Source: a virus (lineage: Duplodnaviria > Caudoviricetes). Taken from it: DNA of 58,711 nucleotides. Both the position numbers and the translations under genes were made by a program. Of this stretch, positions 1,455 through 58,711 are shown one piece after another. The notes below the pieces were generated by a model that was not told the origin of the DNA, did no database searches, and was given only the letters and a program-made list of their open reading frames with translations. Numbering within the stretch: the first letter of the stretch is position 1; the number at the start of each line of letters is the position of its first letter. The DNA lies in IMG/VR virus record IMGVR_UViG_3300049033_000019, positions 1-58,711 of that record; one strand, given 5' to 3'.

Positions 1455-1871
1455 ATGGTCGACAAGGAACGGATGGAACTATGGGTCCAGGCCCTGGAAT
1501 CGGATGAATACGAGCAGTGCACTGGATCACTATTCGTTGGGCAGAATGTTTACCATAGGCACTGCCAAGATGGAAAAATGGGCTTCGCGCAACAGGACCT
1601 TCACTGCGCCTTGGGCGTGGGCATTTCCGTGGCTCTGAAGAATGGAATGTTCAACGATCACCCCAACCCGCCAGCCGATGTACTGGTATACAACGCTGGC
1701 GGTGGAGCACTTCCTGACTGCGTCCGCACATGGTACGGGATAGAGACCGAAGACCCCTACATTCACATTGATAATGATGCGGACAAGGTGAGCCATTTCA
1801 ACGATAACGGTCAATCCTTCTGGACCATTGCCCAAGCCCTTCGAGCCAAGTACCTGAAGGATGAAGAATGA
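1455..1871 (+). CDS. Hypothetical phage protein
   Basis: WVQALESDEYEQCTGSL...HCALGV...ND.G.SF..IA motif common in phages; AGGAGG RBS. Confidence 0.65.
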   Translation: MVDKERMELWVQALESDEYEQCTGSLFVGQNVYHRHCQDGKMGFAQQDLHCALGVGISVALKNGMFNDHPNPPADVLVYNAGGGALPDCVRTWYGIETEDPYIHIDNDADKVSHFNDNGQSFWTIAQALRAKYLKDEE

Positions 1872-1953
1872 TCCATCTGCTCCTCCAGTTAGGTACCACA
1901 GTCCTGGTTGTATCGGCCGTCGTAACCCTGATCTACATGGCCGGGAGGCGAGG

Positions 1954-2349
1954 ATGAGGGTGATCGTCACCGGCTCCCGCAACTGGGGTGGCATCTACGG
2001 CGCCGACCGGATCCATAAGGTCCTGGAGGCCCTGCACATCCTTGCCGCCGTCCTGGGCCAGAAACTGGTTCTGGTCCATGGAGACGGCCTCGGAGCAGAC
2101 CACATCGTCGATGGCTGGGCCCGCCGCCGGGACAGTGATGGCGTAGAGGTTGAAACGTTTCCAGCCAACTGGGGGATGTACAAGAAGTACGCCGGACCGA
2201 TACGAAACCAGGCAATGGTGGACCGTGGAGCTGACCTGTGCATCGGGTTCTGTCGTGGAACCTCAGCCGGGACCCGGCACACCATGGCTCTGGCCCGCAA
2301 TGCCAACATCCCCACATACGTCATCAACTGGGAAGAGACCATTGAATGA
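1954..2349 (+). CDS. SLOG/YspA-like (DUF2493) protein
   Basis: MRVIVTGSRNW...LVHGDG.GAD...AGPIRNQAMVD.GADLCIGF...S.GT signature. Confidence 0.85.
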   Translation: MRVIVTGSRNWGGIYGADRIHKVLEALHILAAVLGQKLVLVHGDGLGADHIVDGWARRRDSDGVEVETFPANWGMYKKYAGPIRNQAMVDRGADLCIGFCRGTSAGTRHTMALARNANIPTYVINWEETIE

Positions 2350-11066: not shown

Positions 11067-11138
11067 AGCGGGATAGTGGAGTAGTACCACGCCGGGCTCA
11101 TAATCCGGAGGTCCCCGGTGCGAATCCGGGTCCCGCCA
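11067..11138 (+). tRNA. tRNA-Met(CAT), initiator-like
   Basis: Cloverleaf: acceptor AGCGGGA/TCCCGCC with a 1:72 mismatch, anticodon arm CCGGG-CTCATAA-TCCGG, T-arm CCCGG-TGCGAAT-CCGGG. Confidence 0.85.
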
Positions 11139-11299
11139 CGTGAGGTCCCCGAAAGCGGACCTCGTCCATGCGCGGGTGGGCGCTAGGCCCTGACAGAGCC
11201 AGATCTGTGACACAGGGCCGAAGTCCGGCGGGGGTTCAAGCTGGTCGAACCGCCGGACACCACTCACCAGACCGCTGGCTGCTAACGGAGGAGTAACTC

Positions 11300-14324: not shown

Positions 14325-14966
14325 TTACCGTGCATCTCCCTGTCCAGGTTGCCCCGAGGTGTTCTGACCGGCCTGATAGTAGTGCCATGTCCGTTCGGCC
14401 AGGTGGGTCATCTTCAGGCCCCTCTCGCAGGCCAGTTTTGCCACCCCGGTGATGAACGCCCAGTCCTCATTGGCGAACGGTCCAGCGGCGTTATCAGGGA
14501 ACCCTACCTCCCTGGCTATATCGGTACGGACCAGGACGTTCATGGTGGTGTGATGCGGGGTGCATGGATTGAAGGGCAGGCTGAAGTGACCCAGCGGATC
14601 CCCACCGGTAAACCACGAGAACACGTACACAGAGTCTGTATCGACTGCTACACGGTGCAGCTTCTCAAGGTGTTCGGGCATCCACTCATCGTCGCTGTCA
14701 AGCCATGCAGTCCACTCTGTGTCCACGTGGTCAAGAAGGGTACGACGTGTCCAGCCCGCACCCTGACGATCGATATCGTTGACCACGTGTATGGCGGACG
14801 GCTGAAGCGTCTGTGTTACCACGGAGGCGAGAGCCCGAGTGAGTAGCTGGGGGCCACGGAACCGGGCTGGGTGGGCAGCGACACAGACACTGATGCCGGG
14901 GCGTAGAGGCTCCCCGTCGGAGATGTACGCGATGGTCTCACCAGCCAAGTTCATGACCCTGTTCAT
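14325..14966 (-). CDS. Glycosyltransferase family 2
   Basis: RALASVVTQT...WTAWLDSDDEWMPEHL...EDW. Confidence 0.85.
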   Translation of the reverse strand: MNRVMNLAGETIAYISDGEPLRPGISVCVAAHPARFRGPQLLTRALASVVTQTLQPSAIHVVNDIDRQGAGWTRRTLLDHVDTEWTAWLDSDDEWMPEHLEKLHRVAVDTDSVYVFSWFTGGDPLGHFSLPFNPCTPHHTTMNVLVRTDIAREVGFPDNAAGPFANEDWAFITGVAKLACERGLKMTHLAERTWHYYQAGQNTSGQPGQGDAR

Positions 14967-15640
14967 CCGTGCTGGTGTAGGTGCCACCACTGATGCCACG
15001 GCAGATTCATGTTCCATCTGACCTTCCCTTCGCTGAGGCGGAACAGGACAGGTAGGGACAGCTGATCTTGGTGGGACCAGTTGATGCACTCATCCCACCA
15101 CTGATCAGACAGTTCGATCACACTGTCTATGTGACGGCGCACGTTGGCTCCGGTGGCGACCAGGCCCCAGTTCATGGGATGCCCGACGACTTCCTGGTAA
15201 AAGCGGGACTGAGCGAGAATCGATGGGGCGTCGTAGCGTGCGAGTGTGGCCGAGAACCCGGCTTCCGGATAAATACAGCGCCGGGATGGGTGTGGCACAC
15301 AGGCCCAATCATCTTCTCCCAGGGCGGCCACCGACCGCTCTACGTAATCGTCCACGGTGATTTCCATGGATCCGTCTATCCACAGAGAGATGTCAGCTTC
15401 TGGAAGCGCAAGATGCGGATGAGTCTTCCACCACTTGTGGGCAAGCATCGGGCCGACAGTCGAAGGGTTCCCCTTCAGGGTCGTGACATAGTGACTGACC
15501 ACCCGAACATCCCAGCCTATGGCGCTGGCCTTTTCGGCGACCACCCCTGAGTCGGTGTACATGATGCAAGGGATGTCCAGGTGGATCGGCTTAGGAGTCT
15601 CATAGCCTCCGTAGACGGCCGTGTAAAGCGCCAGCCTCAT
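14963..15640 (-). CDS. DUF616/TOD1-MUCI70-like glycosyltransferase
   Basis: YTAVYGGYE...SLWIDGS...HP.R.CIY.E...DQLSLP. Confidence 0.8.
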   Translation of the reverse strand: MRLALYTAVYGGYETPKPIHLDIPCIMYTDSGVVAEKASAIGWDVRVVSHYVTTLKGNPSTVGPMLAHKWWKTHPHLALPEADISLWIDGSMEITVDDYVERSVAALGEDDWACVPHPSRRCIYPEAGFSATLARYDAPSILAQSRFYQEVVGHPMNWGLVATGANVRRHIDSVIELSDQWWDECINWSHQDQLSLPVLFRLSEGKVRWNMNLPWHQWWHLHQHG

Positions 15641-16128
15641 TAGTGGAGAACATCCGGCACTGGTCCTGTCACTGTGAACCGCTGCCCATGCAAGGTGGCC
15701 GGGAACGGACCGTTGACCAGGTTCCGATCACCGTCGAAGTATGACGCCGAGGCCGGGCCATTGAACTTGTCCCCGTTGACTGTGACCTGGAAGGTGACGA
15801 CCAGGATGGTGGTGAACTTGTTCGTGGTCTTGTCTGCGTTCACCTCGAAGAATCGACCCTTGTATACATTCTTCGTGCCGGTCTCCCAGGCACCCATCCC
15901 AGCCGAGCTGGAGTTGGTGGCCTCGGCTGCGTCCGGGTTGGTCAAGTCCAAGGTCTGGTCAGCGTGGAAGGTGATGCCATGAGGCTCGAACGGTGCTCCT
16001 ACGGTGTCGACGTACCAGGCGCCGACGATGCCCTTGCCGCTGTCCGCATCGGCGGTCGTGGCCCCGTATGTGAAAACGGTAACCAGTAGCAACGTGGCCA
16101 TGAGCACGCCAAGAAGAAACTTCTTCAT
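15640..16128 (-). CDS. Secreted beta-barrel-like protein
   Basis: Signal peptide; IVGAW...G.GAW motifs. Confidence 0.65.
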   Translation of the reverse strand: MKKFLLGVLMATLLLVTVFTYGATTADADSGKGIVGAWYVDTVGAPFEPHGITFHADQTLDLTNPDAAEATNSSSAGMGAWETGTKNVYKGRFFEVNADKTTNKFTTILVVTFQVTVNGDKFNGPASASYFDGDRNLVNGPFPATLHGQRFTVTGPVPDVLH

Positions 16129-16130
16129 GA

Positions 16131-16949
16131 TCACTTCCCTCTGTACCACTTGATGGTGTCCTTCAGCCTGTCCCAGGAGAACGTGGGCCGAACGCCCACA
16201 GGCAGTAGGTCCCAGCCTTCACCGGCCGCCATAAGGAAGGTGGGGACCTCTCCATCGCGCATGTCCCGATACTCGACTCCACCAGACGACCTGGTCACCT
16301 CCAGTACGTAACCAGCCACTTGATTGACGGTGAGAGGGGTCCCGGTACCAGCGTCAACTGTCTCGTTGTTCTCCAGGTCTACGGCGGCAACCAGGATCCT
16401 GGCTATGTCATCGACATGGATGAGATCAACCGTCTGCGTACCATCACCCCATACTGGGATAGGGATCTCGCGCCAGGCCCAGGAGGAAAACGTCGGAATG
16501 ATCTTCTGCGGGTGACCAGGGCCGTGCTTCTGGCCAGGACCGTAGGCATTGAACGCGCGCACATGGGACACGCGTAGTCCCCGCGAATGATGAAGCGCAG
16601 TAGCCAGCCGTTGTGATGCGATCTTGGTGGCAGTGTAGATGCTGGGGAAGGCATCGGGCATAGTGATGCCGACATAGTTAGCGTCATTCTCAAGGCACCA
16701 GTTCATGATCCGGTAGGAGCCAGTGACGTTGATGTCGATGGCATCCTGCACGTGGTCGAACAGTTCGTGCGTACCCAAGACTCCGGCTAGATGGATAACC
16801 GAGTCGGCGCCCTTGAGCCCACGCAGGTCCCCCATGATGTCGTTACCGTCGGCCCGGTCGAACGTCCAGGCCTCGTGACCTAGATCCTGGGCCTTGCGCA
16901 GGGTGGCTGCACCTATGAACCCAGACCCCCCCGTAATAGCGATCTTCAC
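16131..16949 (-). CDS. NAD-dependent epimerase/dehydratase
   Basis: ITGGSGFIG, HLAG, YTATK (YxxxK), FNAYGPGQ. Confidence 0.93.
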   Translation of the reverse strand: MKIAITGGSGFIGAATLRKAQDLGHEAWTFDRADGNDIMGDLRGLKGADSVIHLAGVLGTHELFDHVQDAIDINVTGSYRIMNWCLENDANYVGITMPDAFPSIYTATKIASQRLATALHHSRGLRVSHVRAFNAYGPGQKHGPGHPQKIIPTFSSWAWREIPIPVWGDGTQTVDLIHVDDIARILVAAVDLENNETVDAGTGTPLTVNQVAGYVLEVTRSSGGVEYRDMRDGEVPTFLMAAGEGWDLLPVGVRPTFSWDRLKDTIKWYRGK

Positions 16950-17617
16950 AGTCCCAGCTCCTGAAGGTAGAGGGCCACCTGTCCCAGGGCCGCTTCCGCA
17001 GATACGGAACCCTCCCTCGTTAGGACGAACTGGGGTACATCTTGATCGCCCAGCAGCATGTTGTCCAGAACGACCTGATACAAGTTCCGGAGCTTCTTAC
17101 TGGTGGGGTTGAGGTTGTATACGACACAGGTTCCGGTGGGCTCCGTGTCCACGGCCAGGATCTTCAAGTCTGGCCGGTAGATCCTCAGCAGTGGAGGCAC
17201 CTTCCACACGTCTCCGGTCCAGTCGCCAGGGCACTGCTCCCGGGATGCTTCATGCTGGTTACGGGGGAGTACGTCATCGAACACGATCACGGTTCGAGGG
17301 TTGGCGTACCTTTCGACGTTCATGAAGTCCCGGAGTGCGAACTCAGCTAGGTGCATGCCGTCGATGAAGGCTAAGTCAATATGTGGCATGTAATCCTGCT
17401 GCCACTCAGGTTCGGACTTCTCGAAGAACTCGTCACTAGTCATAGTGAAGAGGCGCGTGTCCTTTACGTGACCTTGGAGCATGGGTGCAGGGTCGATACC
17501 GATAGCTGGACACTGAGCCAGGGCCAGGCTAGTCCCGTGCTGGACTCCGATCTCCAGGTACCCACGCGGCTTCAGGGCTGTGTGCAGCATGGCCAGGAAC
17601 TCATGACGGCTGGTCAA
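16946..17617 (-). CDS. Class I SAM-dependent methyltransferase (Methyltransf_24-like)
   Basis: YLEIGV..G.S...IDLAFIDGMH...DD...WTGDVWK. Confidence 0.88.
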   Translation of the reverse strand: MTSRHEFLAMLHTALKPRGYLEIGVQHGTSLALAQCPAIGIDPAPMLQGHVKDTRLFTMTSDEFFEKSEPEWQQDYMPHIDLAFIDGMHLAEFALRDFMNVERYANPRTVIVFDDVLPRNQHEASREQCPGDWTGDVWKVPPLLRIYRPDLKILAVDTEPTGTCVVYNLNPTSKKLRNLYQVVLDNMLLGDQDVPQFVLTREGSVSAEAALGQVALYLQELGL

Positions 17618-17844
17618 AACTTGATCGCCTCCTGGATCCGGTCCCTAAGATCAGAGAGGATGCCCTTTGCTTCCGCCTCCCGATAAGGCTCTTTGTTCCA
17701 TTTCACGCTCAGGCCATCAATAAGGCGGATCCAGATGTCGTACTGAGTGGGGCTAACGGTAATGATTGGCGCAAGCTCAATCCAGACGATGTAATCAAGG
17801 CTAACCATTGATCCGTCGTGTCGGACCAGGAATCCATTCACCAA
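17614..17844 (-). CDS. Hypothetical protein
   Basis: Overlap-coupled ORF in operon. Confidence 0.5.
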   Translation of the reverse strand: MVNGFLVRHDGSMVSLDYIVWIELAPIITVSPTQYDIWIRLIDGLSVKWNKEPYREAEAKGILSDLRDRIQEAIKF

Positions 17845-18512
17845 GGCCTCTTTCCCCAGTAGGCGTGGAACCGGGCAGCATCTTCGGGGACGATGGTCTG
17901 AAGCTCAGCGGTCATCTGCTCATTCGGATATAGATGCTCAACGCCGAACCCTGGGACCACAACCATGCCCCCCATTTTCCGGGCCATCCAGTCCACATGA
18001 TCATCGGAGAAGTACCAGCGCAACTGCTCATTCGCCCTGACACCCTTCTCCCCGGCAAGTACAAAAGCGAAGCCCTTCATACGGGTGATTAAACCCACTG
18101 GTCCAGGCTCCCTGTGGACTACTTGGTAGGGGATGGTCGTACCACCGGAACAGGCTGCCGCCGCATTCTCCTGGCGCATCGCTGAGCAGACTGCACTCAT
18201 CCAGCCAGCGGGAACGATCGTATCGTCGTTGAGGATCGCCACGTCCCAATGCGCTGTCTCCAGTTCCTCGCTAAAATCCTTTGCCTTGACCCGGCCCTGA
18301 ATCAGATGCAGCCCCAGGTTCCACCACTTGGAGATGTTCATCTCCGGCTCTCGGACGATGGTGAATCCCTCGTTCAGGCCTAGCATCTGTGCCTTGGGAC
18401 CTCCCTCAACAACCACGACATGATCGACCTGAGGTTTGATCGCATCTAGACATAACTTGAAGCAGTCCCGGCCATTGGTGGGGATGAGGGCGAAGCGGAG
18501 GGGCCTAGTCAT
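17838..18512 (-). CDS. Glycosyltransferase family 2-like
   Basis: IPT.GR...NISKWWNLG...VAILNDD...WYFSDD. Confidence 0.8.
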   Translation of the reverse strand: MTRPLRFALIPTNGRDCFKLCLDAIKPQVDHVVVVEGGPKAQMLGLNEGFTIVREPEMNISKWWNLGLHLIQGRVKAKDFSEELETAHWDVAILNDDTIVPAGWMSAVCSAMRQENAAAACSGGTTIPYQVVHREPGPVGLITRMKGFAFVLAGEKGVRANEQLRWYFSDDHVDWMARKMGGMVVVPGFGVEHLYPNEQMTAELQTIVPEDAARFHAYWGKRPW

Positions 18513-18514
18513 GG

Positions 18515-18787
18515 TTACTCTCCCCTGACCAGCTTCGCGCGAGCGTTGGCGTTGTTCACGTGTTCGATCAGGTTCCGGAGTAGTTCCGGATTGCTGACTA
18601 CACACTGGGCCACGATTTCGCCGTCCGGAGTAGTGATAAGTAGATTTACCTGACCATCGCGCTCACCGAAGATGAGCTTGTGGTAATAGCCATGACGCCA
18701 CTTGAAACCGCGCATGAACCGCCAGACGAACCTAGACTTCCAAGTGCCGTAGGGACCTGTTTCTCCTGGCGCTATGAGGGCCGTCAT
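18515..18787 (-). CDS. Hypothetical protein
   Basis: 90-aa ORF in operon. Confidence 0.5.
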   Translation of the reverse strand: MTALIAPGETGPYGTWKSRFVWRFMRGFKWRHGYYHKLIFGERDGQVNLLITTPDGEIVAQCVVSNPELLRNLIEHVNNANARAKLVRGE

Positions 18788-18791
18788 CTTG

Positions 18792-19850
18792 CTACCCACG
18801 TTCGATCTCCAAGGCCTTAGTCCACGCCTCCCACCAGCGCCAGGCATTGGCCTGGTACGTCTGCGCCTGCATGTACTCCCTTCCCGCCTCCACCTGCTCC
18901 TTGCGTAGGACTGAGTCGTCCATGAGCAGTTTCAGCTTTGAGTACCAGTCCTTTGGGGTGTCCGCGATCAGGCCGCAACCTGACTCACGGTGCAGCCTAC
19001 GGTACTCCTCCCTGGGTGAAGCAACCCAAGGGACCCCTACCGCCATGTACTCGATGCCTTTGAGCCTGGACTTGGAGGTGTTGAACGAGGTCGGAGCTAG
19101 TGGAATCATGCCCACATCCAGCTCCTCACCGATCCGGGCGGCCCATTGGTTCAGGGGGATGGATCCCGTTACGTCCGGGTCGTTACGCAGCCGGAGACAC
19201 CTCTTGACGGCCGATTTCCCGCCCACGACCTTGAACGTGTACCCAGCGTCCATGAGCCGCTGCACGGCCGGGGTAGTGATCTGAAGATCATTCGGGTGCG
19301 ACTTCGTCGTCCCAGCCCAACCGAACGCTCCGGTCTCTGGGCTGGGGAAGTCCAGGTACGCCTCCGGCACATAGTTGTCCAGCACGGCGCCTCGGCCATG
19401 CTTGGCGTACACCTTCTGAAGTTGGCTGGTGGAGGTGGTGACCATGGTCGCCACCCGACAGGACTCCAGGGCCCATCGCCAGGACACATTGGTGTGGGAG
19501 TTGTGCCGGTACACGTGGAAGGCGATGTTGTCTGGATGGATAGATGACATGTCATCATCCATGTCCACCACCACGGCGATGCCGTTAGCCCGGATCATCT
19601 GGATCATCTGAGGCTGGAGGGGGTGACACGGCCGCTGGATCACGATCACATCGGCATCAGCGGGGATCCCCAGGCCGGTAAGTCGTTCAGTACCGTCAGG
19701 CCCTTCCTCGATCTTGGCCATGAAGCCGGAGTCTTGCTTCGGTGGCATGATCTGAATCTCATGGCCGGACTTCTTCAGCACATCAGCCGGCCAGATCAGT
19801 CGATAGTGGCCGCAGCCGTACGGATCCGAAGGAAGAATGTAAACCTTCAT
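18792..19850 (-). CDS. Glycosyltransferase (GT-B / family 4-like)
   Basis: GCGHYRL..P...VIQR...DMDDD...GWAG..SH..DL...PL....FN.SKS.LK.IEY. Confidence 0.88.
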   Translation of the reverse strand: MKVYILPSDPYGCGHYRLIWPADVLKKSGHEIQIMPPKQDSGFMAKIEEGPDGTERLTGLGIPADADVIVIQRPCHPLQPQMIQMIRANGIAVVVDMDDDMSSIHPDNIAFHVYRHNSHTNVSWRWALESCRVATMVTTSTSQLQKVYAKHGRGAVLDNYVPEAYLDFPSPETGAFGWAGTTKSHPNDLQITTPAVQRLMDAGYTFKVVGGKSAVKRCLRLRNDPDVTGSIPLNQWAARIGEELDVGMIPLAPTSFNTSKSRLKGIEYMAVGVPWVASPREEYRRLHRESGCGLIADTPKDWYSKLKLLMDDSVLRKEQVEAGREYMQAQTYQANAWRWWEAWTKALEIERG

Positions 19851-34800: not shown

Positions 34801-37800
34801 CTATGTCCTAGCTGGCTCACGCATGATGCGGTCCAGTGCGTCCATGGCCTTCCGGATCGCTCGGTCGATCTCCAGCTTCCCTTCCATGCTCTCGTGGCGG
34901 TGGTTATACAGTTTTGTCCGTAGCGATTCCATGAGCCGCATAGCCTTTACCCGTTCATTGCTAAACGGACGCTTCATGGCCTCAGTCATCAGCTCCTGAA
35001 GCGCGTCCATCTCATTGAACGTGCCACCACTGTCGTTGGGTCGACGGCTGGTGCCTCGAGCCAATGGGATCTTGCTCAGATCTTCCATAAGCTGCCGGAT
35101 CGGAGCCGGGGTCTCTTCGGGCAGGCTTAATGGAGCCTTGGCCGGGGCGTCCAGTTCTGACACCATCCTGTCAATCTTGCGTCGAGCGCTGGAATCAGCC
35201 GGCAGCCGCTGACCAAGTGCCCGTAGTTGATCAATCAACTGCTCCTGGCTGATCTGTCCTCGTGCTGCCCGGGTGGCTAAACGACCAACGACGTTGGCCA
35301 GAGCATCTCCGTCTACTTCAAGTTTTTGGTCATCACCCATGGTGCGCAGAGTGGTACCGATGATGCCGTCAGCATGGAACCCGATCTCACCCTGTCCGAA
35401 GTCGCCCCATGTGTTTTCAATGATCGGCTTATCGGACATACGAGGGGCCGCAGCTTCTGTGGCCTTGGCTGACTGGACCACCTTCAGCGCTGGCCGTGTT
35501 GCCTTAGACGGTCCCCCACCAGCGCCACCGCCCTCAATGACCTTGAGCCGGGCAGCTCGCTGAGCCTGGGTCGTGGCCGGAGCCTCCGGAGCGCTGGGGG
35601 TGGCCTTCTTGGCCGGGGTCGATTTCTTGTCCTCCTGCTGTATCAGGGAGGCCACCCGACGCAGGTACTCGGCGTTGGACTTGCGGATGGACCGGAGGCT
35701 GTCCCGGTCATGTTCGACCTTGAACCGGCGACCCTCCTCACTCAGGTCAGCCTTGGCTACCTGAGCGGCCCGCTCCCGTAGCTCCCGAGCCACATCTGCG
35801 GACGAATCACCGGACCGGAGGCGGCGATCAGCGCGATCCACAGCCGACTGAACGTCACTGAAGTACTCACCCGGTTCAGGGATGTCAGCGTTCCGGGCTC
35901 GACGAGCCAGCGGGAGCTTATCGGCGGCGCGCCCCAGGCCACCCTCACCCGAGGCCGACGGTAGCTCCGGCTTGATCCGGTCCAGGATCTTGTTCCGTAG
36001 GTCCTGCTTGCTACGGCCCTTGAGCCCACCGAGCTGCTCCCCGACCCGGCGAAGCTCAGGCATCGTCAACCCGTCCAGGGCGGATTCACCCTGCTCCCTG
36101 CTCCGGGCCTTGCTTAGTTGGTCCAGGCGCTCGTTAATGAGCCGGGCTTCAGCGCTGTCAGCTCGGGTTTCGGCAGCCTTGACCTCGGGGGTGGCAGCCT
36201 TCTTCGCGGGCCGGCGCCGAGTCTTCTTCAGCCGCTCGGCCAGCTCCCGGATCTTGGTGACCTCAGCCTTGACCCGGTCATACTCGGCAGCATTCGCGGC
36301 CTTGCGCTCCCCCCTTTCCTCCGGGGTGAGGAGAGAGCTTTCGCTGTGCCAATTGCCCACCTCATAAACGGCTGTGGTCATGCGACTAGTGGCGCGGTCG
36401 TCTAGCTCAGATCCGATCTTGGCGGGGGACACCTTCCCCTCATCCATGTCCTTCTGTGCCTCGTCCAGGGTGCGCTTGACCCACGGATCATTCTCATCGA
36501 AATCGATCCCAGCCCCGATGGTCCGGACATCCAACTTCTCCCGGTCGGTGGGGATAGTGGGGGCAGCCTTCTTCGCGGCCTTAGCGGCTTTCTTGGCCGG
36601 GGCCTTCTTCGGGATCAGGCCACGCTCCCGGGCAACCTTCCCGGCCACCTGGCGGACCAGGTCCTGGAGCATCTCCTCCTTAGTCTCACCCTTCGGCGGG
36701 TCCAAGCCCTGCATCCGGGCAGCTTCACGGAGATCGTCCGGGGTGGCCTTCTGGAGCGCTTCGAAGCCTTCCGCATCCAGGTTGACCCGTACCTCAGCGA
36801 TGGTCGGCTTTTCGTCGCTGAGGTACATCCGCATGAACTTCGACGCCTTCTTCTGCGCGTCGATAGCACTCTGGAGCTTGGCTGCATCAGATTGGAGCCT
36901 GGTCCGCTGCTCCGGACTGAGGTCAGGCTGGCGCAGGTTGGCGTCGACCTCGTTCAGGTCCTCCTGGTTGAAGCTGATCTCACCTTCGATGCGGCGGACA
37001 CCCTCCTCAGGGGTGATCTTCCCGCTGGCTACGTCGTCTCGGATCTCTTTCAGGCTCCGGCCGGCAGCACCGTCAGCATCCAAGTCAGCTGCATCCCAGG
37101 CATCACCGAACTCACGCTTACGGGGTTCGTTACTGACGGGGGTCTGCGTACGGTCCCCCTTCACCGATCCCTCAGGGACCACCCGGGCACCACGTTCGGA
37201 CCGTTCGGCACCAGCCGCCTCCTTGGGGCTGGCTACTTCGACCGTGGCCCGGTCGAGCTGAATGTCCTCGTCACGCCACCTGGTGCTGCTGCCTGGACGG
37301 ACGATGTGAACCATCGTCCCTTCGGGGATGTCCCCAGCGATGCCCTTGTGCAGGCGCCGATTGAATGGCACCACGTCCCCGGCCTTGCCCTGGAGGGACA
37401 CATCATCGGCTGCAGTAATCCGGTCGACGAAGGAGCGTGCTCCATCCACATCCCCACGGCCGAGCATCTCGACGATAGCGTCAGCCCACTTAGCGTCGGA
37501 ACCTTCGGTGCCGAGACGGGCCCTGACCCTGGCACTGATCGCTTCAGCCGACGCTTCGTTAGCAACCAGCTCATCGAACTCTGCTGCCAGCCGTCCGTAC
37601 TTACGGCCACGATCAATCTTGGCCTGACGGTTACGGGCTACCTCAACGGAGTCCTCTGGAGCCAAGGGGACGGCCTCAGGGCGAGCTTCCGTGAAGCCAC
37701 GAGTAGCAATGGAGTCACGGCGACTGCCTACCGTCGCCTCAACAATCTCCCGTTGCAGTTCTGGCTTCGTCAGAGTGGTACGGCGCGGGATCTCCAGCTC

Positions 37801-40470
37801 CTTGGCCATCTCCTGGAGCTGAGCCTTGTTGAAGTCACTGACCATCTCCTGAGCTTGTTCACGGCTCGGAGGGTTCTCTTGGCCACTGAGCCTGGCCAGG
37901 GTTTCGGATGGAGTGAGCTTCCGTGCCTCGGCTGAAGCCTCAAGTTCTGGGGCCTGTCCGCCACGGCGAACGTTCATCTTGCCGTTCGGGTTGACCGAGT
38001 CGATCAGCTTCCCGTCGGCGTCGTAGAACTGATACCGCCTCGTGGGGGATCGCTCGATGCGTGCAACCTCACGACCGGAGGCTCCCGGCTTTACTCGGGA
38101 TAATGGACGACTCCCGTCCCGACCGAGAAGGATGGTGTCTCCAACCTGGACAGTTTGCGGACCAATCCGCTCCAGGCGCCCAGGTGCAGCCTCGGGTACG
38201 GCGGCCTTGGCTGCCTTCTTGGCTGGGGCCGGAGCCTCAGGTGCCTGTGCCGCTGCCTCTTCCCGACCTCGAATCGCTGCCTTGATCTTGTCCTTTGTCC
38301 AGCCACCTCGTGCCGTTACACCACGGCGACCGGCCTCAGCGATCAACTCCTGCTTCGTCATCCGGTCCAGGTCATCACCCGGAGCCTCCGGTGCAGCCTT
38401 CTTGGCCGTCTTTTTGCCGGGAGGACCAGCTTTCCGCACCCGCTGTACTGCCTCTTCTACCGCACGCCGGTCTCCTTCCGGCATGTCGGCCAGGATCTGG
38501 TCCCGCACCTCTGGGTTCATCCGGTCCAGGAGGTGAGTGGCAACCCGGTCCTCTGTACTGACCCTTTTTGCCGCCTTCTTCGGAGCCTCTACCGGCACCT
38601 CCCCCCGCTGCCGGCCACGACTGGGCCGGGCACCGAGGATGGCCAGAATCATCTCAGAGCGTGGCTCCTTGGGTCCGAAGCCGAGGTTGTTGCGTTCCCC
38701 CATCTCCCGTAGCTGAGCATTGGTTGGCCGCTTACCGTTGAACAGGCCCTTTATCTCCTGCTCAGGGGTTAGTTCAGCAGGAGGAACCACCGGCGCTGCC
38801 ATCTTCGCCGGAGCCTTCTTGGCCACCGGAGCAGGCGCCTTCGGTGCCTCACCACGTCGCCGTGCCAAGATCTCATCGGCCGTCCCGACAATCCGCTGTT
38901 CCTCTTCGTTACGCTCGTTACCCCGGAACTGCTGGGCCCGAGCAATGACGCGGTTCTCCTGGTCCCGGCTCATGCCAGACTTCTTGGCCGGCGCCTTCAC
39001 TGGTGTCGGAGTCGGAGCCGCCTCTGGAGCCGTTGCCTTCCCGGCCTTGGCTGCCTTCTTGCGCTCGTCCAGCTCCTGCATCTGAGACTTGGCAACCTTT
39101 GGCAGCCCAGCCTCAGTGCGTGGTACCGCCTTACCCGGCGCCTGCTTCGTCTCAGGCTGCTCCAGTCCGTACTCTCGCTTGATCACATCCGAGAGCTGGC
39201 GCAGGTCCTCAGCATCCGGATCCCCAGCGGCGTCTAGATCTGCCGCATCCCGGTCCAACTCCCGGACCGCGTCAATCGGATCTTTCCGTCCGGAGACGAC
39301 GCCTTCGTAAGCCTCGTTGAACCGCCTCCGGTTGGGGCCGGCGGCCGGAGACGGAACACCTGCATCACGGACAGCGCGGCGCAGGTCCACAGAGCGAGTC
39401 GTTGCTGTCGGAGCCTCCGGGGCGCCGGGGGCCGCCGGTTGGCCACCGGGACCTGTCGCCGGACGCGGCTCCCCGCCGATGGACGGGGCATGGATTGGCT
39501 CGGTGCGAGGTTGGACGCCAGCCTGTTGCTGTAGCTGTTCAACGCGCCGCCGTTCTGCTTCCTGCATCGGGGACGGGGTGACTGGGGTTTTGGCCGCCTC
39601 AGCCGCAGCCTCGGCTCGGGCCTGCTCATCAGCAGCCTCCTGCTCATCATCTGGCCGCTTCTCGAACTTCCCCAGTCGTTGGCCCGTTTCGCGGATGCTG
39701 GCTTCCCGCTCCTTCGACGGGCGCCGTCCTTCACCGATGGGTCCAGCGATCGGTTCTGGCGTCTTGTGTCGGCCGGACGAGTCGGCCGTGACGAACATGG
39801 TCCAGCCACCGACACCATCAGGCTCCACTTTGGTCACCCGAAGTGGCTGGTCCCGATCAAGGAAGATGGTGGAGTCTTCCGGACCAGCGGCCGGAACGAC
39901 GACCTTGGTGCCCTTCTTGGCAGCGATGACCATCCGGACACTGCCAGCCGGCTGCGTCCCTTCCACGCCACCGATGGTGGTGAGGCTGTAGCCCCGGTCG
40001 GCGATGAGCTTTCCGGCCATCTCCCGGATCCCAGGGTCGGCATCTGAGCTGGTGCCGGCTGCGGTCTGTGGGGTGTACCCGAAGGAATCCACACCCACGA
40101 CCCGGGTGAGGATTACATCGTCTGGCAACTCGGTGGCCGACCGGTCCATCATCTGCACGAACCGTTGTGTCGACGGCTCGTCTATGACCCCGTCGCGGAG
40201 GTCGGCGTTGGTGGCACCCAGGTCGCTACGGAGGCGGAGGTGGTCAGCTCGACCCATCCGGCCCCGACCCTGACGGGAAGCAATGTTCGTCAGGTACTGA
40301 TTGGACTGTCGCTTGTTCTGGAACATGCGGGGCCGGAAGCTGGCCAAGAAGTCCAAGACTCCCTGGATGAGGCTCTTGGCCATTCCGGCCTTACGGATCC
40401 AGCGACCATCAGGGCCACGAGGGTGGAGTAACTCCTCCTTCGTGCCCCACGAGTCGCCGATCCCGGGCAT
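34801..40470 (-). CDS. Large polyvalent (probably packaged/ejected) protein with ART-like, Rho-N/SAP-like and GrpE-like segments
   Basis: 1889 aa; HPRGPDGRW N-motif; LTRVVG...DRGYSLTT; several short helix-loop-helix repeats; AKKA linkers. Confidence 0.75.
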   Translation of the reverse strand: MPGIGDSWGTKEELLHPRGPDGRWIRKAGMAKSLIQGVLDFLASFRPRMFQNKRQSNQYLTNIASRQGRGRMGRADHLRLRSDLGATNADLRDGVIDEPSTQRFVQMMDRSATELPDDVILTRVVGVDSFGYTPQTAAGTSSDADPGIREMAGKLIADRGYSLTTIGGVEGTQPAGSVRMVIAAKKGTKVVVPAAGPEDSTIFLDRDQPLRVTKVEPDGVGGWTMFVTADSSGRHKTPEPIAGPIGEGRRPSKEREASIRETGQRLGKFEKRPDDEQEAADEQARAEAAAEAAKTPVTPSPMQEAERRRVEQLQQQAGVQPRTEPIHAPSIGGEPRPATGPGGQPAAPGAPEAPTATTRSVDLRRAVRDAGVPSPAAGPNRRRFNEAYEGVVSGRKDPIDAVRELDRDAADLDAAGDPDAEDLRQLSDVIKREYGLEQPETKQAPGKAVPRTEAGLPKVAKSQMQELDERKKAAKAGKATAPEAAPTPTPVKAPAKKSGMSRDQENRVIARAQQFRGNERNEEEQRIVGTADEILARRRGEAPKAPAPVAKKAPAKMAAPVVPPAELTPEQEIKGLFNGKRPTNAQLREMGERNNLGFGPKEPRSEMILAILGARPSRGRQRGEVPVEAPKKAAKRVSTEDRVATHLLDRMNPEVRDQILADMPEGDRRAVEEAVQRVRKAGPPGKKTAKKAAPEAPGDDLDRMTKQELIAEAGRRGVTARGGWTKDKIKAAIRGREEAAAQAPEAPAPAKKAAKAAVPEAAPGRLERIGPQTVQVGDTILLGRDGSRPLSRVKPGASGREVARIERSPTRRYQFYDADGKLIDSVNPNGKMNVRRGGQAPELEASAEARKLTPSETLARLSGQENPPSREQAQEMVSDFNKAQLQEMAKELEIPRRTTLTKPELQREIVEATVGSRRDSIATRGFTEARPEAVPLAPEDSVEVARNRQAKIDRGRKYGRLAAEFDELVANEASAEAISARVRARLGTEGSDAKWADAIVEMLGRGDVDGARSFVDRITAADDVSLQGKAGDVVPFNRRLHKGIAGDIPEGTMVHIVRPGSSTRWRDEDIQLDRATVEVASPKEAAGAERSERGARVVPEGSVKGDRTQTPVSNEPRKREFGDAWDAADLDADGAAGRSLKEIRDDVASGKITPEEGVRRIEGEISFNQEDLNEVDANLRQPDLSPEQRTRLQSDAAKLQSAIDAQKKASKFMRMYLSDEKPTIAEVRVNLDAEGFEALQKATPDDLREAARMQGLDPPKGETKEEMLQDLVRQVAGKVARERGLIPKKAPAKKAAKAAKKAAPTIPTDREKLDVRTIGAGIDFDENDPWVKRTLDEAQKDMDEGKVSPAKIGSELDDRATSRMTTAVYEVGNWHSESSLLTPEERGERKAANAAEYDRVKAEVTKIRELAERLKKTRRRPAKKAATPEVKAAETRADSAEARLINERLDQLSKARSREQGESALDGLTMPELRRVGEQLGGLKGRSKQDLRNKILDRIKPELPSASGEGGLGRAADKLPLARRARNADIPEPGEYFSDVQSAVDRADRRLRSGDSSADVARELRERAAQVAKADLSEEGRRFKVEHDRDSLRSIRKSNAEYLRRVASLIQQEDKKSTPAKKATPSAPEAPATTQAQRAARLKVIEGGGAGGGPSKATRPALKVVQSAKATEAAAPRMSDKPIIENTWGDFGQGEIGFHADGIIGTTLRTMGDDQKLEVDGDALANVVGRLATRAARGQISQEQLIDQLRALGQRLPADSSARRKIDRMVSELDAPAKAPLSLPEETPAPIRQLMEDLSKIPLARGTSRRPNDSGGTFNEMDALQELMTEAMKRPFSNERVKAMRLMESLRTKLYNHRHESMEGKLEIDRAIRKAMDALDRIMREPART

Positions 40471-48025: not shown

Positions 48026-48097
48026 TTCCAGAAGCTGGAATTGAACCAGCAACCTTCGGTTCCTTATACCGACGTCCTACCATTGGACGACTCTGGG
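48026..48097 (-). tRNA. Atypical tRNA, anticodon AAG (Leu by anticodon), short variable arm
   Basis: CCCAGAG TC GTCC AATGGTA GGAC G TCGGT ATAAGGA ACCGA AGGTT GCTGG TTCAATT CCAGC TTCTGGA A. Confidence 0.7.
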
Positions 48098-55389: not shown

Positions 55390-55428
55390 AAAAAGGCCCC
55401 GTACCTGATACAGGTACGGGGCCTTTTT
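55390..55428. terminator. Bidirectional intrinsic terminator
   Basis: AAAAAGGCCCCGTACCTG-ATA-CAGGTACGGGGCCTTTTT between convergent genes. Confidence 0.85.
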
Positions 55429-55475
55429 CCTGTCCACCCCTGGACACATTAACCACGTGAATGGCGGTAACTATG

Positions 55476-56216
55476 CTACAGGGTGGCGGTGGCCGGTTGT
55501 CCGGTTCCGTTGGTGGCACGTTGCGTCTTCTTCAGCCTGCTGACCTCAGTGGCGGTGTACGCCTCTGTGGTCCCAGCCCTGGTCGCGATGTCCTTGACCG
55601 AGGCCCACGGCATGTCCATGAAGGCCATGGCGATGCGCTCGCGGCCGTTCAGCGGCTTCTCCGGGGCCACCTTCGCGTCCTCCTTGGCACTGGCGGACAG
55701 GTCCATGGCTGCGATCTTCTCCTCCATGTTGCGGATAAAGATCATGACCTCCAGCACGCTGAGAGAGCCCACGAGCATGAAGGCGTCGATCGCCCCAGGC
55801 AACATGATGGCCTGGAGGTGGTCACCTCCGTACGTCTCAAGGGCGCTCCGCTGGTGCCGGAACGAGGTCACTACAGTCACGGTGGCGATGGTGAACATCG
55901 CCAGGATCCGCAGGCCAGTAGCCCAGTACCGGAGGCTGTACCACTTCAACCCCGCTGGGGGCAGTGGGATCCGGCTGATGGCCTCGAACGCTCCCAGGAG
56001 GAGGATCGGGGCGAGGAGGGCGATGGCGACTCGGATGGGCAGTGGTTGTCCCACCGCCGCCTTACTGACAGCGTGAAGCACGTTCCCACCGGCCGAGGTA
56101 ACGAATCCGAAGATGATCATTCCTCGACAGGCCCATAGCACATTGATGAATACGTCAAGCTTCTGTTGCGCACGCTCCCTCGGGGTCTTGGGCAGCGGCT
56201 TCCTTTTGAATAGCAT
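55476..56216 (-). CDS. DUF2637/SpdB-like membrane protein with C-terminal HTH
   Basis: S.GGNVLHA...AP..LL..FE...SF.H...P..IDA.M; C-terminal SVKDIATRAGTTEAY. Confidence 0.7.
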   Translation of the reverse strand: MLFKRKPLPKTPRERAQQKLDVFINVLWACRGMIIFGFVTSAGGNVLHAVSKAAVGQPLPIRVAIALLAPILLLGAFEAISRIPLPPAGLKWYSLRYWATGLRILAMFTIATVTVVTSFRHQRSALETYGGDHLQAIMLPGAIDAFMLVGSLSVLEVMIFIRNMEEKIAAMDLSASAKEDAKVAPEKPLNGRERIAMAFMDMPWASVKDIATRAGTTEAYTATEVSRLKKTQRATNGTGQPATATL

Positions 56217-56303
56217 GAGGTTCCCTCCTTAAAGGGCTAAAAAAGGTGATTGGTCCGGTTTACGGGGGCATGAAGCCGCGTCCGTCATTCACCGGTAAAA
56301 GTA

Positions 56304-56332
56304 AGAGTAGCTCAGGGAGGGGTCCCTGTCAA
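56304..56332 (-). promoter_or_regulatory. Promoter with shared operator in spacer
   Basis: TTGACA-17-TACTCT; spacer GGGACCCCTCCCTGAGC. Confidence 0.7.
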
Positions 56333-56333
56333 G

Positions 56334-56407
56334 TGGCCAGGGTCAGTTTCGAACTGACACCCTGCGGATTATGAGTCCGCTGCTCTAACCTGTTGAGCTA
56401 CCTGGCC
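56334..56407 (-). tRNA. tRNA with CAT anticodon (Ile2-like or elongator Met)
   Basis: GGCCAGG TA GCTC AACAGGTTA GAGC A GCGGA CTCATAA TCCGC AGGGT GTCAG TTCGAAA CTGAC CCTGGCC A. Confidence 0.92.
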
Positions 56408-56502
56408 TGATAGATGGGGAGAAGGACCAGTGTCAACAGCACGCCCAGCCAGCCCGGCGCGCTGATCCCTCTTCTTACCTGGCTGTCCAGCCCATCAACT
56501 GA

Positions 56503-56616
56503 TTACCTCCCAGGTGCCGGCACTGGTTTTGGAGCTGGGGCCGGCGCTGGCCTAGGTGGCGGGGGTGGTGGATTGTATGGAGGCCTTGGTGGGGGTGGAC
56601 TGGGTGGTCTACTCAT
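56503..56616 (-). CDS. 37-aa proline-rich peptide
   Basis: AAGGAGG RBS just upstream of ATG; MSRPPSPPPPRPPYNPPPPPPRPAPAPAPKPVPAPGR. Confidence 0.55.
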   Translation of the reverse strand: MSRPPSPPPPRPPYNPPPPPPRPAPAPAPKPVPAPGR

Positions 56617-56881
56617 GATCCTCCTTAAGTTAGAAGATCCCCTCCCGGTCGAGAGTCGGGAGGGGATCTTGCGTGGAACTTCGTTGGGAGCCCACACGTG
56701 GGGGACAGAGGTGTCGATCCTCGCTTTACACCCACGGATTGAGCCGCCCCAAGGGGCCTGGCGCTCGTTCCGTGGGGGTGCGCCGGCACTTCCCCCTCGG
56801 ATCCCGGGAGAGGTGAACGTGAACCCATCCGCCCCCGGGATCCTCACTTCAGCGGGCCTTCTCTTCCTGCTGGAGGACTCT

Positions 56882-56910
56882 AGTATACACACCCCTCCCT
56901 GTGATCACAA
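56882..56910 (-). promoter_or_regulatory. Promoter with shared operator in spacer
   Basis: TTGTGA-17-TATACT; spacer contains CAGGGAGGGGT. Confidence 0.65.
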
Positions 56911-57135
56911 GGGGTCTTCTGGGTCAGCCTTCCGCATACCGAGCGTGGCTTGAAAACCGGCCATGAAGGACAACCACATCGTGATCACCGAGATGGCGTT
57001 CAGGTTGCGCACCGAGTCCATCCAGAACACGAACGTGGCCACGCCCCAGACCATGGCGAGAACAGCCACCCCAGACCAGAACCACATCCAGAACACCCCG
57101 GAACCGAACCACCTGCTGGCACGGCTCCGGGGCAT
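56905..57135 (-). CDS. Small 2-TM membrane protein
   Basis: Trp-rich hydrophobic helices. Confidence 0.65.
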   Translation of the reverse strand: MPRSRASRWFGSGVFWMWFWSGVAVLAMVWGVATFVFWMDSVRNLNAISVITMWLSFMAGFQATLGMRKADPEDPL

Positions 57136-57153
57136 AAACCCACTGTAGGCGAA

Positions 57154-57345
57154 CTAGGTTCCAACGTAGCTGCCGAAGGCGCTGATGACGCCGTCAGGGT
57201 CGTCCAAGCTGGCTAGGACCCGGCGGAGGGCGTGCTCAATAACCGGCTTCATCTCAGTTGTGGGTCGGGTGGCATTCTGGATCAGTTCCAGAAGACTCTT
57301 GCCGCCCAGATCTGGGAGTAGATCAAACGATTCATCGGCAACCAT
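57154..57345 (-). CDS. FxSxx-COOH (FxsA-like) RiPP precursor-like peptide
   Basis: LPDLGGKSLLEL...HALRRVLASLDDPDGVISAFGSYVGT. Confidence 0.75.
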   Translation of the reverse strand: MVADESFDLLPDLGGKSLLELIQNATRPTTEMKPVIEHALRRVLASLDDPDGVISAFGSYVGT

Positions 57346-57525
57346 TCACTCAACGTAGGAACTAAAGGCGCTGATGACACCGTTTGGATCGTCAAGACTG
57401 GACAAGAGGCGGCCAAGAGCGGCAGATAGTTGCGACTTCACCTCCTCGGGCTCGTCGAGGATCACGCTGAGCTGTTCCCGGGACATGTCCGGTAGCGGGG
57501 CCCAGTCGTCCAGGTTGATGGCCAT
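57346..57525 (-). CDS. FxSxx-COOH (FxsA-like) RiPP precursor-like peptide, second copy (not in ORF track)
   Basis: Manual translation MAINLDDWAPLPDMSREQLSVILDEPEEVKSQLSAALGRLLSSLDDPNGVISAFSSYVE. Confidence 0.75.
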   Translation of the reverse strand: MAINLDDWAPLPDMSREQLSVILDEPEEVKSQLSAALGRLLSSLDDPNGVISAFSSYVE

Positions 57526-57640
57526 GGCCTAGTTGTAGACCCCCTGGTGTCAGAAGTCAGGCTCCAGCCTGTCCACTCTTGTCAACCGGCCCGAGCGGCC
57601 CCGGCCCCACGCCCCCCGGCTCTACAACAGTCGCCATAGC

Positions 57641-57883
57641 GCAAACTGTACCAGGGGCACAACTGGTTCTAGTAGTCTCGCCATTTCCCCTTCTTTTTTA
57701 TGTTTTTTCAGGCTCCCTTCTCTCTGTTTTTTCTGTTTTTTTCCCCGGGATCTGAAGCTACTAGCGCCACTTGTGCCTTATGAACAGTTTGCTGGGCGTT
57801 TTGCCCTGATCCTAGCCTGGAAAGGGGCCCGAAAAAGGCCCATGAAGCACAAACTGCTTCAGGGGCCTAAGTGGCACAACTAG
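57641..57883. other. Candidate replication origin (or packaging site)
   Basis: 35-bp imperfect inverted repeats (57641-57675, 57758-57792) flank an 82-bp T/C-rich tract; third degenerate copy at 57849-57883. Confidence 0.5.
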
Positions 57884-57909
57884 TCTCAGCCCTGTCTGGG
57901 CCAAGATCA

Positions 57910-58233
57910 TCAGGTCAGTGGGTCCTGCATCCGAGCCTCCAGCTCCCGCAACCCGGCCAACACCAGGTCCGCCTTCGCCACCAGCTCACCATCCGGCTGA
58001 TCCGACCCAGGAACAGGTTGATCAAGCCGATACAGCCGCGCCAACCGGTCACAGACCCTGATCCCAGCCTCAATGAAGCGAGGATCGGGCTTACCAACCT
58101 CACCGGTGGCATGCGGCTGGCACACCGACCAGAGCTGTTCGTAGCGTTCCACCAGCAGGGCTCGGACCAGGGGGGCGGATTCGTGAATCTCCTCGTCCCG
58201 GATACCGCGCTGCGGGGTCAACTCCTGGGTCAT
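57910..58233 (-). CDS. Possible terminase small subunit-like protein
   Basis: ERYEQLW...G...IRVCDRLARLYRLDQP resembles the R..LLGLD.P motif of actinophage TerS-like proteins. Confidence 0.5.
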   Translation of the reverse strand: MTQELTPQRGIRDEEIHESAPLVRALLVERYEQLWSVCQPHATGEVGKPDPRFIEAGIRVCDRLARLYRLDQPVPGSDQPDGELVAKADLVLAGLRELEARMQDPLT

Positions 58234-58711
58234 GGGCACAGTGTCCAAACATGCATATTGACATGCACAGTCATCAGCTAGAGCTGATACAGGGAAGGGT
58301 ACACGTACCGGCTGTGAAAACTGGACCCAGTCCAATGTTACATTGAAGAGGAGTCATGGACAGGTGAACGGGACAGGCAACCGAGCTGACTATGCGGCCG
58401 CCTGGACCATGATCATGATCATTCCGGTCGTGCCTGCCCCATGATCCTTGATCATGTACTGGTTAGGCTACACAGCGTGACATGGCACATAGGGCCATGG
58501 GGCCTGGGCAGGTGTCAAGATCACTGATCATGGTGCCTGGTATGGGGGACATGGGGCCTAGGTCTGGTACCTGGCCTATGTCCGGTATGGGGGCTGGGTC
58601 GAGCTAGGGCACCTGGACCCCTGGCCCCTGCCCCAGGGTGCCCATGAGCGGGCCGGGGGCAGGAGCCTGGGGCTGGGGTTCAGCGGGTCGACCGCCAGTC
58701 GTGGCGGGGCG

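Follow-up and report, generated by a model that had tools for sequence, protein, structure and literature searches.

We analyzed a pair of small peptide genes, designated pepA and pepB, in the IMG/VR virus record IMGVR_UViG_3300049033_000019 (Duplodnaviria; Caudoviricetes), all 58,711 nucleotides (nt) of which are referred to here as the window. The two genes lie on the minus strand, 1.2 kb from the right end of the record, and both were taken from its list of open reading frames (ORFs): pepA (57346-57525) encodes a peptide of 59 amino acids (aa) that ends in ...SLDDPNGVISAFSSYVE, and pepB (57154-57345) encodes one of 63 aa that ends in ...SLDDPDGVISAFGSYVGT. Both are homologues of FxsA-like precursors, pepA being of the "...AFSS[FY]VE" type and pepB of the "...AF[GQ]S[FY]..." type. 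The ATG of pepB immediately follows the TGA stop codon of pepA, leaving a spacer of 0 nt, and the peptides have in common the C-terminal block ...SLDDP(N/D)GVISAF(S/G)SYV; the two abutting minus-strand peptides with a shared C-terminal motif described in the initial annotation were thus confirmed. Overall, the two proteins are 41% identical, and their DNA contains a common direct repeat of 71 nt with 72% identity. The GC content at the three codon positions is gene-like in both pepA (0.64/0.39/0.75) and pepB (0.67/0.41/0.67).

A public protein collection held the exact pepA peptide (P0004) on five contigs, the longest of 58711 nt, and the closest match to pepB was 98% identical (P0001). This fits the earlier remark that one of the peptides was missing from the ORF track. 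Two further relatives, P0002 (71% identical to pepB) and P0005 (92% identical to pepA), probably derive from one 984-nt contig. PF27839.1 is a precomputed assignment on the relatives of pepB. Comparison of pepA and pepB with PHROGs gave no annotated match, and PADLOC gave none for the peptides or for neighboring genes.

Relationship of the peptides to FxsA

FxsA, as represented by TIGR04268, resembles pepA and pepB in its length (55-80 aa), its leader (PL-x-D-x-S ... L-x-R ... R-[LV]-x-x-S-L-D-D-P), and its C-terminal F-x-S core, but pepA and pepB differ from it in being phage-borne, arranged in tandem, and unaccompanied by genes for FxsB, a peptidase, TIR, or NB-ARC/TPR proteins. The NCBIfam name of TIGR04268 includes "cyclophane-containing RiPP peptide," RiPP denoting a ribosomally made peptide with post-translational modifications, and FxsB is reportedly the enzyme that forms a Phe-Ser cyclophane (described in 2022 by Phan and Morinaka). 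When searched with the TIGR04268 (FxSxx-COOH) hidden Markov model (HMM), pepA scored 13.4 bits (E 0.071) and pepB 18.4 bits (E 0.0019), with pepB scoring 17.6 bits in a six-frame search. The alignments were in register, spanning profile positions 17/18-42 of 44 and placing FxS on model positions 40-42. The initial annotation had proposed this search as a check on its claim and a lack of matches as grounds for rejecting it; in-register matches were indeed obtained, although they lay below the curated cut-off of 28 bits. Likewise, the proposed likeness to FxSxx-COOH precursors stands as homology, borne out by the family profile and the FxsB-linked relatives described below, but not as a literal two-residue tail: FxS is followed by three residues in pepA (YVE) and by four in pepB (YVGT), so that neither peptide ends strictly in FxSxx-COOH.

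We built a family profile (A1) from pepA, pepB, and five close relatives and searched it against 1.84 billion representative proteins, which returned 153 proteins at E<=1e-3, 48 of them at E<=1e-10. Four of the 150 matches listed (P0121, P0131, P0142, and P0147) are long proteins, three of them inspected, and were rejected as family members; P0131 matches A1 through repeated ...LDDPNG... motifs that look HEAT-repeat-like by eye. The remaining matches listed are peptides of 40-112 aa with the family pattern PL-x-D-x-S ... L-x-R ... R-[LV]-x-x-S-L-D-D-P-[ND]-G-V-I-S-A-F-x-S-[FY]. Among 61 aligned family members, 39 match TIGR04268 at E<=0.01, the best of them at 2e-10. The tail after FxS has two residues in only 9 of 149 motif-bearing family peptides and three to five in 112 of them. 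The profile scores of pepA (77.2 bits) and pepB (70.3 bits) fall within the range of bacterial peptides linked to FxsB (62-91 bits), and kinship with peptides encoded directly upstream of FxsB is therefore significant. Judged from these sequence comparisons, pepA and pepB are true homologues that belong to a distinct FxsA subfamily, outside the TIGR04268 equivalog by threshold. The subfamily differs in its tail, which extends three to five residues beyond FxS instead of two.

Bacterial Fxs loci of the same subfamily

Locus scans yielded 8 loci from a set with one genome per species and 21 loci from Joint Genome Institute (JGI) metagenomes; several of the bacterial loci are near-duplicates, and the distinct bacterial peptides number 22. 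In all five genomes searched, comparison of coordinates showed that an FxsB scoring above the 370-bit cut-off adjoins the peptide. Of 26 single-peptide loci, 22 have an FxsB-like ORF, identified with an FxsB seed from locus L004, downstream of the peptide. Of the four exceptions, the contigs of L021 and L025 stop within ~150 nt, that of L026 stops before an FxsB that is present in its near-identical twins L027 and L028, and L002 has only an FxsB fragment (94.7 bits). All nine large flanking proteins tested are matched by NF040586, the FxSxx-COOH system TPR protein, at 658-885 bits, and two of them contain a KGGVGR ParA-like ATPase domain. Pfam assigned NB-ARC and TPR to the flanking proteins and, in one, also EAD2 and VMAP-M0. 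The layout of the loci is NB-ARC/TPR, peptide, radical S-adenosylmethionine (SAM) protein, then NB-ARC/TPR, and the statement that FxsA is encoded together with FxsB and NB-ARC/TPR proteins therefore holds for the bacterial members of the subfamily. The FxsB-linked bacterial peptides end in ...AFSSFVE, ...AFSSFVS, ...AFESFVET, and similar sequences, and those of L026-L028 have the ...ISAFSSFVE end, as in phage copies.

The A1 profile was positive in 31 of 301 Micromonosporaceae genomes vs 1 of 401 genomes in a class-wide sample, the one being the centre genome. The subfamily is thus concentrated in Micromonosporaceae, which tells of the distribution of the peptide and not of the phage host. 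The Micromonosporaceae genomes behind L002-L004 and L007 (G001, G002, and G004) each encode three to five FxsB paralogues above the curated cut-off but, as a rule, a single peptide of the SAFxS[FY] subfamily. Such genomes would thus have several Fxs systems with different peptide types.

The carrier phage and the missing Fxs enzymes

The record represents a linear siphovirus, rated 94% complete by CheckV, and no terminal repeat of 10-399 nt was found in it. The window encodes a large terminase, portal, MuF-like protein, major head protein, tape measure, and primase, so that the peptides are carried by a phage, as initially described. It also encodes an exonuclease, an amidase, a glycosyltransferase, an epimerase, a methyltransferase, RusA, and a SLOG-family protein. 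A search of the window for integrases of the tyrosine type was negative, serine recombinases not being covered. The closest capsid proteins are those of Actinoplanes phage phiAsp2 (39%) and of Gordonia phages (35%), and since the 870 phage records matching the capsid protein are dominated by actinophages, the host is expected to be an actinobacterium. When the capsid protein was compared with Micromonosporaceae genomes, matches were found in 8 of 301, all <=39% identical.

Six-frame HMM searches of the window with E<=10 gave no match to TIGR04269 (FxsB), PF04055 (Radical_SAM), or TIGR04267 (HExxH), and none was obtained at a permissive E-value with PF13676 (TIR_2) or NF040586 (FxSxx_TPR). Pfam and PHROG scans of 30 further window ORFs showed no Fxs-type enzyme either. 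The window therefore contains neither an FxsB adjoining the peptides nor TIR and NB-ARC/TPR partners in their locus, in agreement with the initial annotation, which had reported no Fxs enzymes and had named maturase genes elsewhere in the phage as evidence against its proposal; none were present in the six frames of the record. In the window, a gene for a membrane-type protein of 76 aa takes the place immediately behind the peptides that FxsB takes in bacteria.

Recurrence and divergence of the genes in phages

Phages of at least three lineages carry orphan FxsA-like genes, and the survey for such genes suggested in the initial annotation yielded further carriers (L010, L011, L018, and L031-L033). 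The contig L018 (1788 nt) shows synteny with the window: a homologue of a 141-aa phage gene (85%), two overlapping peptide genes, and a counterpart of the 76-aa gene (80%) follow one another. In L011 (1302 nt), a helix-turn-helix gene and a peptide pair are followed by a terminase, the two non-peptide genes resembling those of the window and the terminase being 85% identical over 98 aa, and the corresponding site of the window (47.6-48.5 kb) has ~220 nt and the tRNA-Leu region instead of the pair. Since the pair occupies a different locus in L011, it moves as a cassette. L010 (1092 nt, GC 0.635) carries an overlapping peptide pair followed by a small helix-turn-helix-like ORF, with no FxsB in the 700 nt after the pair.

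Earlier scans of IMG/VR had given 21 pattern matches, none of them a relative, and no match to the strict pattern DP[ND]GVISAF, but a looser DNA pattern revealed three more records, L031, L032, and L033. The related fragments L031 and L032 have portal-, MuF-, and capsid-like ORFs by eye, and L033 is a 132.7-kb record with direct terminal repeats that is rated 100% complete. Each of the three has one peptide gene and no PF04055 match anywhere in the record. In L032 (744-935) and L031 (1545-1727), the single FxsA-like gene is directly followed by a conserved ORF of 60-63 aa (…CESAHCV.V.F…EWDAF..GVK.G..D), which we take to resemble the DUF397 proteins of Streptomyces. Among GenBank phage isolates (50,697 records), there was no credible match to pepA, pepB, or bacterial FxsA: the two matches of pepB (E=0.8), both within RusA genes of Gordonia phages, were judged spurious, and pepA and bacterial FxsA had none at E<=10.

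Among the window and the loci from the genome and JGI metagenome scans, tandem pairs occur in 4 of 4 loci of phage or mobile type (window, L010, L011, and L018) vs 0 of 26 other loci. Each pair combines an ...AFSS[FY]VE peptide with an ...AF[GQ]S[FY]... peptide, in variable order. When the window is compared with L018, the genes on either side of the pair share 85% and 80% of their protein sequence (78-80% in DNA) vs 52% and 46% for the best peptide matches, and the DNA between these flanks (783 nt in the window and 990 nt in L018) shows no blastn similarity. In a peptide tree, which was poorly resolved (62 columns; 17 of 30 forks open), the terminal branches were longest for phage rows (1.4-2.5, the median being 0.36). 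By the approximately unbiased (AU) test, a common origin of the phage copies was neither supported nor rejected (p-AU 0.126). The phage copies have relaxed N-terminal leader motifs and retain the last ~25 residues. An N-terminal Cys motif resembling CCGGxCGC was seen in 2 of 11 phage-context peptides (L010 1-219 and L011 552-746) and in none of the 22 distinct bacterial ones; a regular-expression search found it in seven proteins (P0010, P0014, P0021, P0027, P0043, P0053, and P0124). This Cys-rich motif is possibly a metal- or Fe-S-binding tag.

The neighborhood of the pair

The gene for the 76-aa protein (56905-57135, minus strand) starts 18 nt past the stop codon of pepB and is probably the third gene of a peptide operon. 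Its product is Trp-rich and, from its sequence, apparently membrane-spanning; it had no Pfam, PHROG, or PADLOC match. Upstream of pepA lies a non-coding stretch of 384 nt (57526-57909), part of a variable island, that has no blastn similarity to its equivalent in L018. It contains an inverted repeat of 35 nt (arms 57641-57675 and 57758-57792, 77% complementary) enclosing a tract of 82 nt, 100-270 nt upstream of pepA, which is T-rich on the plus strand and A-rich on the minus strand. The minus-strand RNA of 57630-57800 was predicted to form a long hairpin (-55.6 kcal/mol, z -4.9), and none of 200 shuffled sequences folded as well. A third, partial copy of the arm is present at 57870-57884. The hairpin may have a regulatory function or mark an origin or packaging site. 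Rfam recognized no family in the window besides three tRNAs, and thus none at the hairpin. A search upstream of pepA revealed no sigma-70-like promoter, and two terminator-like sites showed no excess over the shuffle expectation. The upstream flank of the island is the conserved 141-aa phage gene (57910-58335, minus strand; 85% identical to L018 92-430), for which the closest Atlas clusters comprise viral hypothetical proteins and a weak lead points to a small terminase (0.90).

Two contigs from RNA libraries, X22 (57154-57447) and X23 (57264-57476), match the window with no differences and both span the junction of pepA and pepB (2 of 3 metatranscriptome runs); X22 begins at 57154 and covers the whole of pepB. 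Stretches of 55400-58711 without RNA contigs (e.g., 56621-57064 and 57509-57841) are not read as silence. At least half of the sampled words of the 1.6-kb peptide region were found in 21 of the 24 runs listed for it, which are from soil or rhizosphere and all date from 2025; one of them may be the source. The three tRNA genes are tRNA-Met(cat) at 56333-56407 (minus strand), tRNA-Leu(aag) at 48026-48097 (minus strand), and tRNA-Met(cat) at 11067-11139 (plus strand). The putative peptide operon is closely followed by the tRNA-Met gene at 56.3 kb, where the contigs of 4 of 4 runs break, with unrelated sequence beyond.

Other features of the window

A protein of 162 aa related to YAcAr/YspA (1861-2349, plus strand) matched the SLOG family PF10686 with 43.5 bits, above cut-off, and its gene would be ~3 kb from the peptides if the ends of the record were joined. 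SLOG domains are predicted to bind signals derived from nucleotides, and on a phage equipped with putative mimics of a TIR-linked system, the protein could act as a sponge for such signals. A link between SLOG and the peptides was dropped, as the ORF beside the L033 peptide, which has a glycine-rich motif of similar appearance, gave only a BLASTP E-value of 1.0 and PF10686 had no match in L033. A cluster of sugar-modifying genes (14963-19850, minus strand) stands beside tail and lysis genes. Its products are two glycosyltransferases, one TOD1/MUCI70-like and one of group 1, together with an NAD-dependent epimerase/dehydratase and a methyltransferase; glycosylation of the virion or of DNA is a possible role. 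Between the MuF-like and capsid genes lies an ORF of 1889 aa (34801-40470, minus strand), which is unusually large for this position and has weak PHROG matches only, to an endonuclease VII-like stretch and to a family of no known role.

A possible role for pepA and pepB

The peptide FxSxx, a metallopeptidase, and a radical SAM-SPASM protein have been described as coupled to conflict systems of the VMAP/TIR-AP-ATPase-TPR kind, the peptide being predicted to act as a toxin or signal (Kaur et al., 2020; PMC7159879). In a 2026 preprint, FxsC is an active TIR protein, FxsT combines ParA with an inactive TIR, and the peptide is predicted to be an antiviral or alarm signal (10.64898/2026.10.19.760177). 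The suggestion in the initial annotation that Fxs is an immunity or signaling system is therefore backed in these two sources by prediction of a purely computational kind. The bacterial loci found here match the layout described there for Fxs-linked VMAP/TIR-ParA-STAND systems. Such a conflict system is the predicted host target, and the phage carries the peptide component only. Since the processed peptide is predicted to be a toxin, antiviral, or alarm, a phage that keeps the peptide alone is best explained as tampering with the circuit.

Homology shows that pepA and pepB are copies of the FxsA precursor of actinobacteria, carried by the phage without a maturase. Considering the spacers of 0 and 18 nt and the RNA-library contigs, they appear to be expressed with the small membrane protein as a compact operon. 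As the phage has no FxsB, HExxH peptidase, or NB-ARC/TPR-TIR partner, and as the conserved part of the peptides is the enzyme-proximal core (R-L-x-x-S-L-D-D-P-x-G-V-I-S-A-F-x-S-[FY]), we infer that they would act through Fxs proteins of the host. Their most likely purpose would be subversion of the host's Fxs-linked NB-ARC/TPR-TIR conflict system, conceivably by one of two routes. The phage peptides could be competing precursors that occupy FxsB or the peptidase, or they could be a ligand read by the host sensor, which would be tripped if that ligand were lost or altered, leaving the infection unnoticed; the near-identity of phage and host cores fits the second route. More speculatively, the two peptide types of the pair may address two host Fxs paralogues. 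We assign a probability of roughly 45% to the proposal that pepA and pepB tamper with the host's Fxs-linked conflict system via host Fxs proteins. A more elaborate scenario, which is doubtful but conceivable, is that actinophages have repeatedly captured the Fxs precursor gene and maintain it as an enzyme-less, fast-evolving anti-defence cassette; this cassette would feed or jam the FxsB/peptidase-NB-ARC/TPR-TIR circuit and leave the suicide response untriggered, and in the lineage of the window its two peptide types would serve against two classes of host Fxs locus.

Several observations weigh against tampering with the host circuit. The scores of both peptides fall short of the TIGR04268 cut-off. 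Since the nearest capsids are at most 39% identical and the phage differs in GC content (0.60) from the bacterial Fxs loci (0.65-0.73), possession of an Fxs system by the host is an assumption. The contigs X22 and X23 attest presence in RNA libraries and are no proof of transcription, strand, or a single transcript. Because the phage cores are so like the bacterial ones, they would give much the same product if processed, which speaks against a simple dead-end decoy. The single copy in 3 of the 7 phage-context records (L031-L033) means that the tandem pair is not general, and a distant maturase is conceivable in the ~6% of the genome (~3.5 kb) that is possibly unseen. Fxs components are absent from PADLOC-DB 2.0, which gave only generic similarities to radical SAM/pVip and to ParA-like PDC-M28B. 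To our knowledge, no experiment has addressed an anti-phage role of Fxs, and its immune role is a prediction. A complex prediction for pepB with the TPR part (560-1017) of the NB-ARC/TPR protein encoded at L007:6210-9263 gave a score of 0.00 and a mark of 0.32, was run without controls, and counts neither way.

A phage could instead exploit the pathway, with host FxsB and peptidase maturing the peptides into a cyclophane product for its own use, such as an arbitrium-like infection-density signal or a weapon or exclusion factor directed at rival phages or nearby cells, and the co-transcribed 76-aa membrane protein might help export. The FxS core and SLDDPxGVISA block are (near-)invariant in phage copies, as for a competent substrate; in two phages the pair is followed by a gene for a small membrane protein, and a serine-recombinase-like ORF, recognized by eye in L033, indicates that this carrier may be temperate. 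A phage precursor peptide processed by the host is known in AimP of the arbitrium system, which differs in having its own receptor, AimR, and no radical SAM chemistry (PMC12360287). No receptor gene was seen here; the neighbors of the peptides include no receptor candidate and have no Pfam, PHROG, or PADLOC matches, and in L010 and L011 no such membrane protein follows the pair. Along with the lack of a tyrosine integrase in the window and a fast divergence that suits conflict better than a stable signal-receptor code, though arbitrium diversifies too, this makes exploitation somewhat unlikely. Still less probable is a function independent of Fxs, in which small helical proteins bind another target of host or phage through their C-terminal block and the likeness to FxsA reflects ancestry only. 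Several phage copies have relaxed or lost the leader motifs conserved in bacteria (W-x-PL-x-DVS and ALAR), with FDLLPDLG in pepB and no leader block in L031 and L032, as would be expected in that case, but the part kept in phages is exactly the FxS crosslink site with its adjacent residues, a retention difficult to explain by an unrelated target, and no neighbor hints at another target.

That the genes are passenger DNA, recently captured from a host and without function for the phage, would agree with their position in a variable island and with the absence of credible matches among the GenBank isolates for the three queries, yet we consider it quite improbable. Both frames are intact and have counterparts in several diverged phage contigs, GC at third codon positions (GC3) is phage-typical (0.67-0.75) vs 0.8-0.97 in the bacterial loci, and the genes are flanked by neither host DNA nor an FxsB remnant. 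Moreover, the tandem layout was found only in phage-type contexts, and the peptide genes are present in RNA libraries as well as in most of the listed soil and rhizosphere runs. Least probable of all is an ordinary, complete phage-borne RiPP cluster with its maturase in the unsequenced ~6%. Although the record is linear, lacks a terminal repeat, is incomplete, and has the peptides close to its right end, FxsB directly follows the peptide in bacteria, where the window, L018, L011, and L010 hold other genes, and the complete L033 has a peptide but no radical SAM gene.

Antitoxin mimics such as pseudo-ToxI are phage-encoded mimics of a labile host immune component. Tampering by pepA and pepB would share their logic, namely a phage homologue of the small, fast-turnover part of a suicide system without its effector, but the mimicked part here would be a RiPP precursor that requires host enzymes. 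We know of no case of RiPP-precursor mimicry by a phage. Full-text searches of the literature, with subscription journals mostly uncovered, gave no report of it or of a phage-borne FxsA, and phage-borne peptides are not mentioned in the accessible portions of the two accounts of Fxs (PMC7159879; 10.64898/2026.10.19.760177).

Implications for Fxs biology

Work on Fxs has so far had two sides, a radical SAM cyclophane pathway on the one and a purely predicted TIR/STAND "apoptosis" system on the other. The Fxs system is widespread in filamentous actinobacteria, and a phage with the peptide gene alone is a natural experiment on the role of the Fxs peptide. Since intact, diverging, and expressed-looking copies recur across phage lineages, the peptide appears to matter during infection. 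If the phage peptides are substrates for phage signaling, they would form a new class of phage communication peptide. If they are mimics, they would represent a new counter-defence logic, the hijacking of host RiPP maturation, and may offer a tool for switching Fxs signaling on or off. Should they be an anti-defence cassette, this would be the first RiPP-precursor mimicry to serve as counter-immunity and the first natural evidence of Fxs as anti-phage immunity with the peptide as its regulatory ligand.

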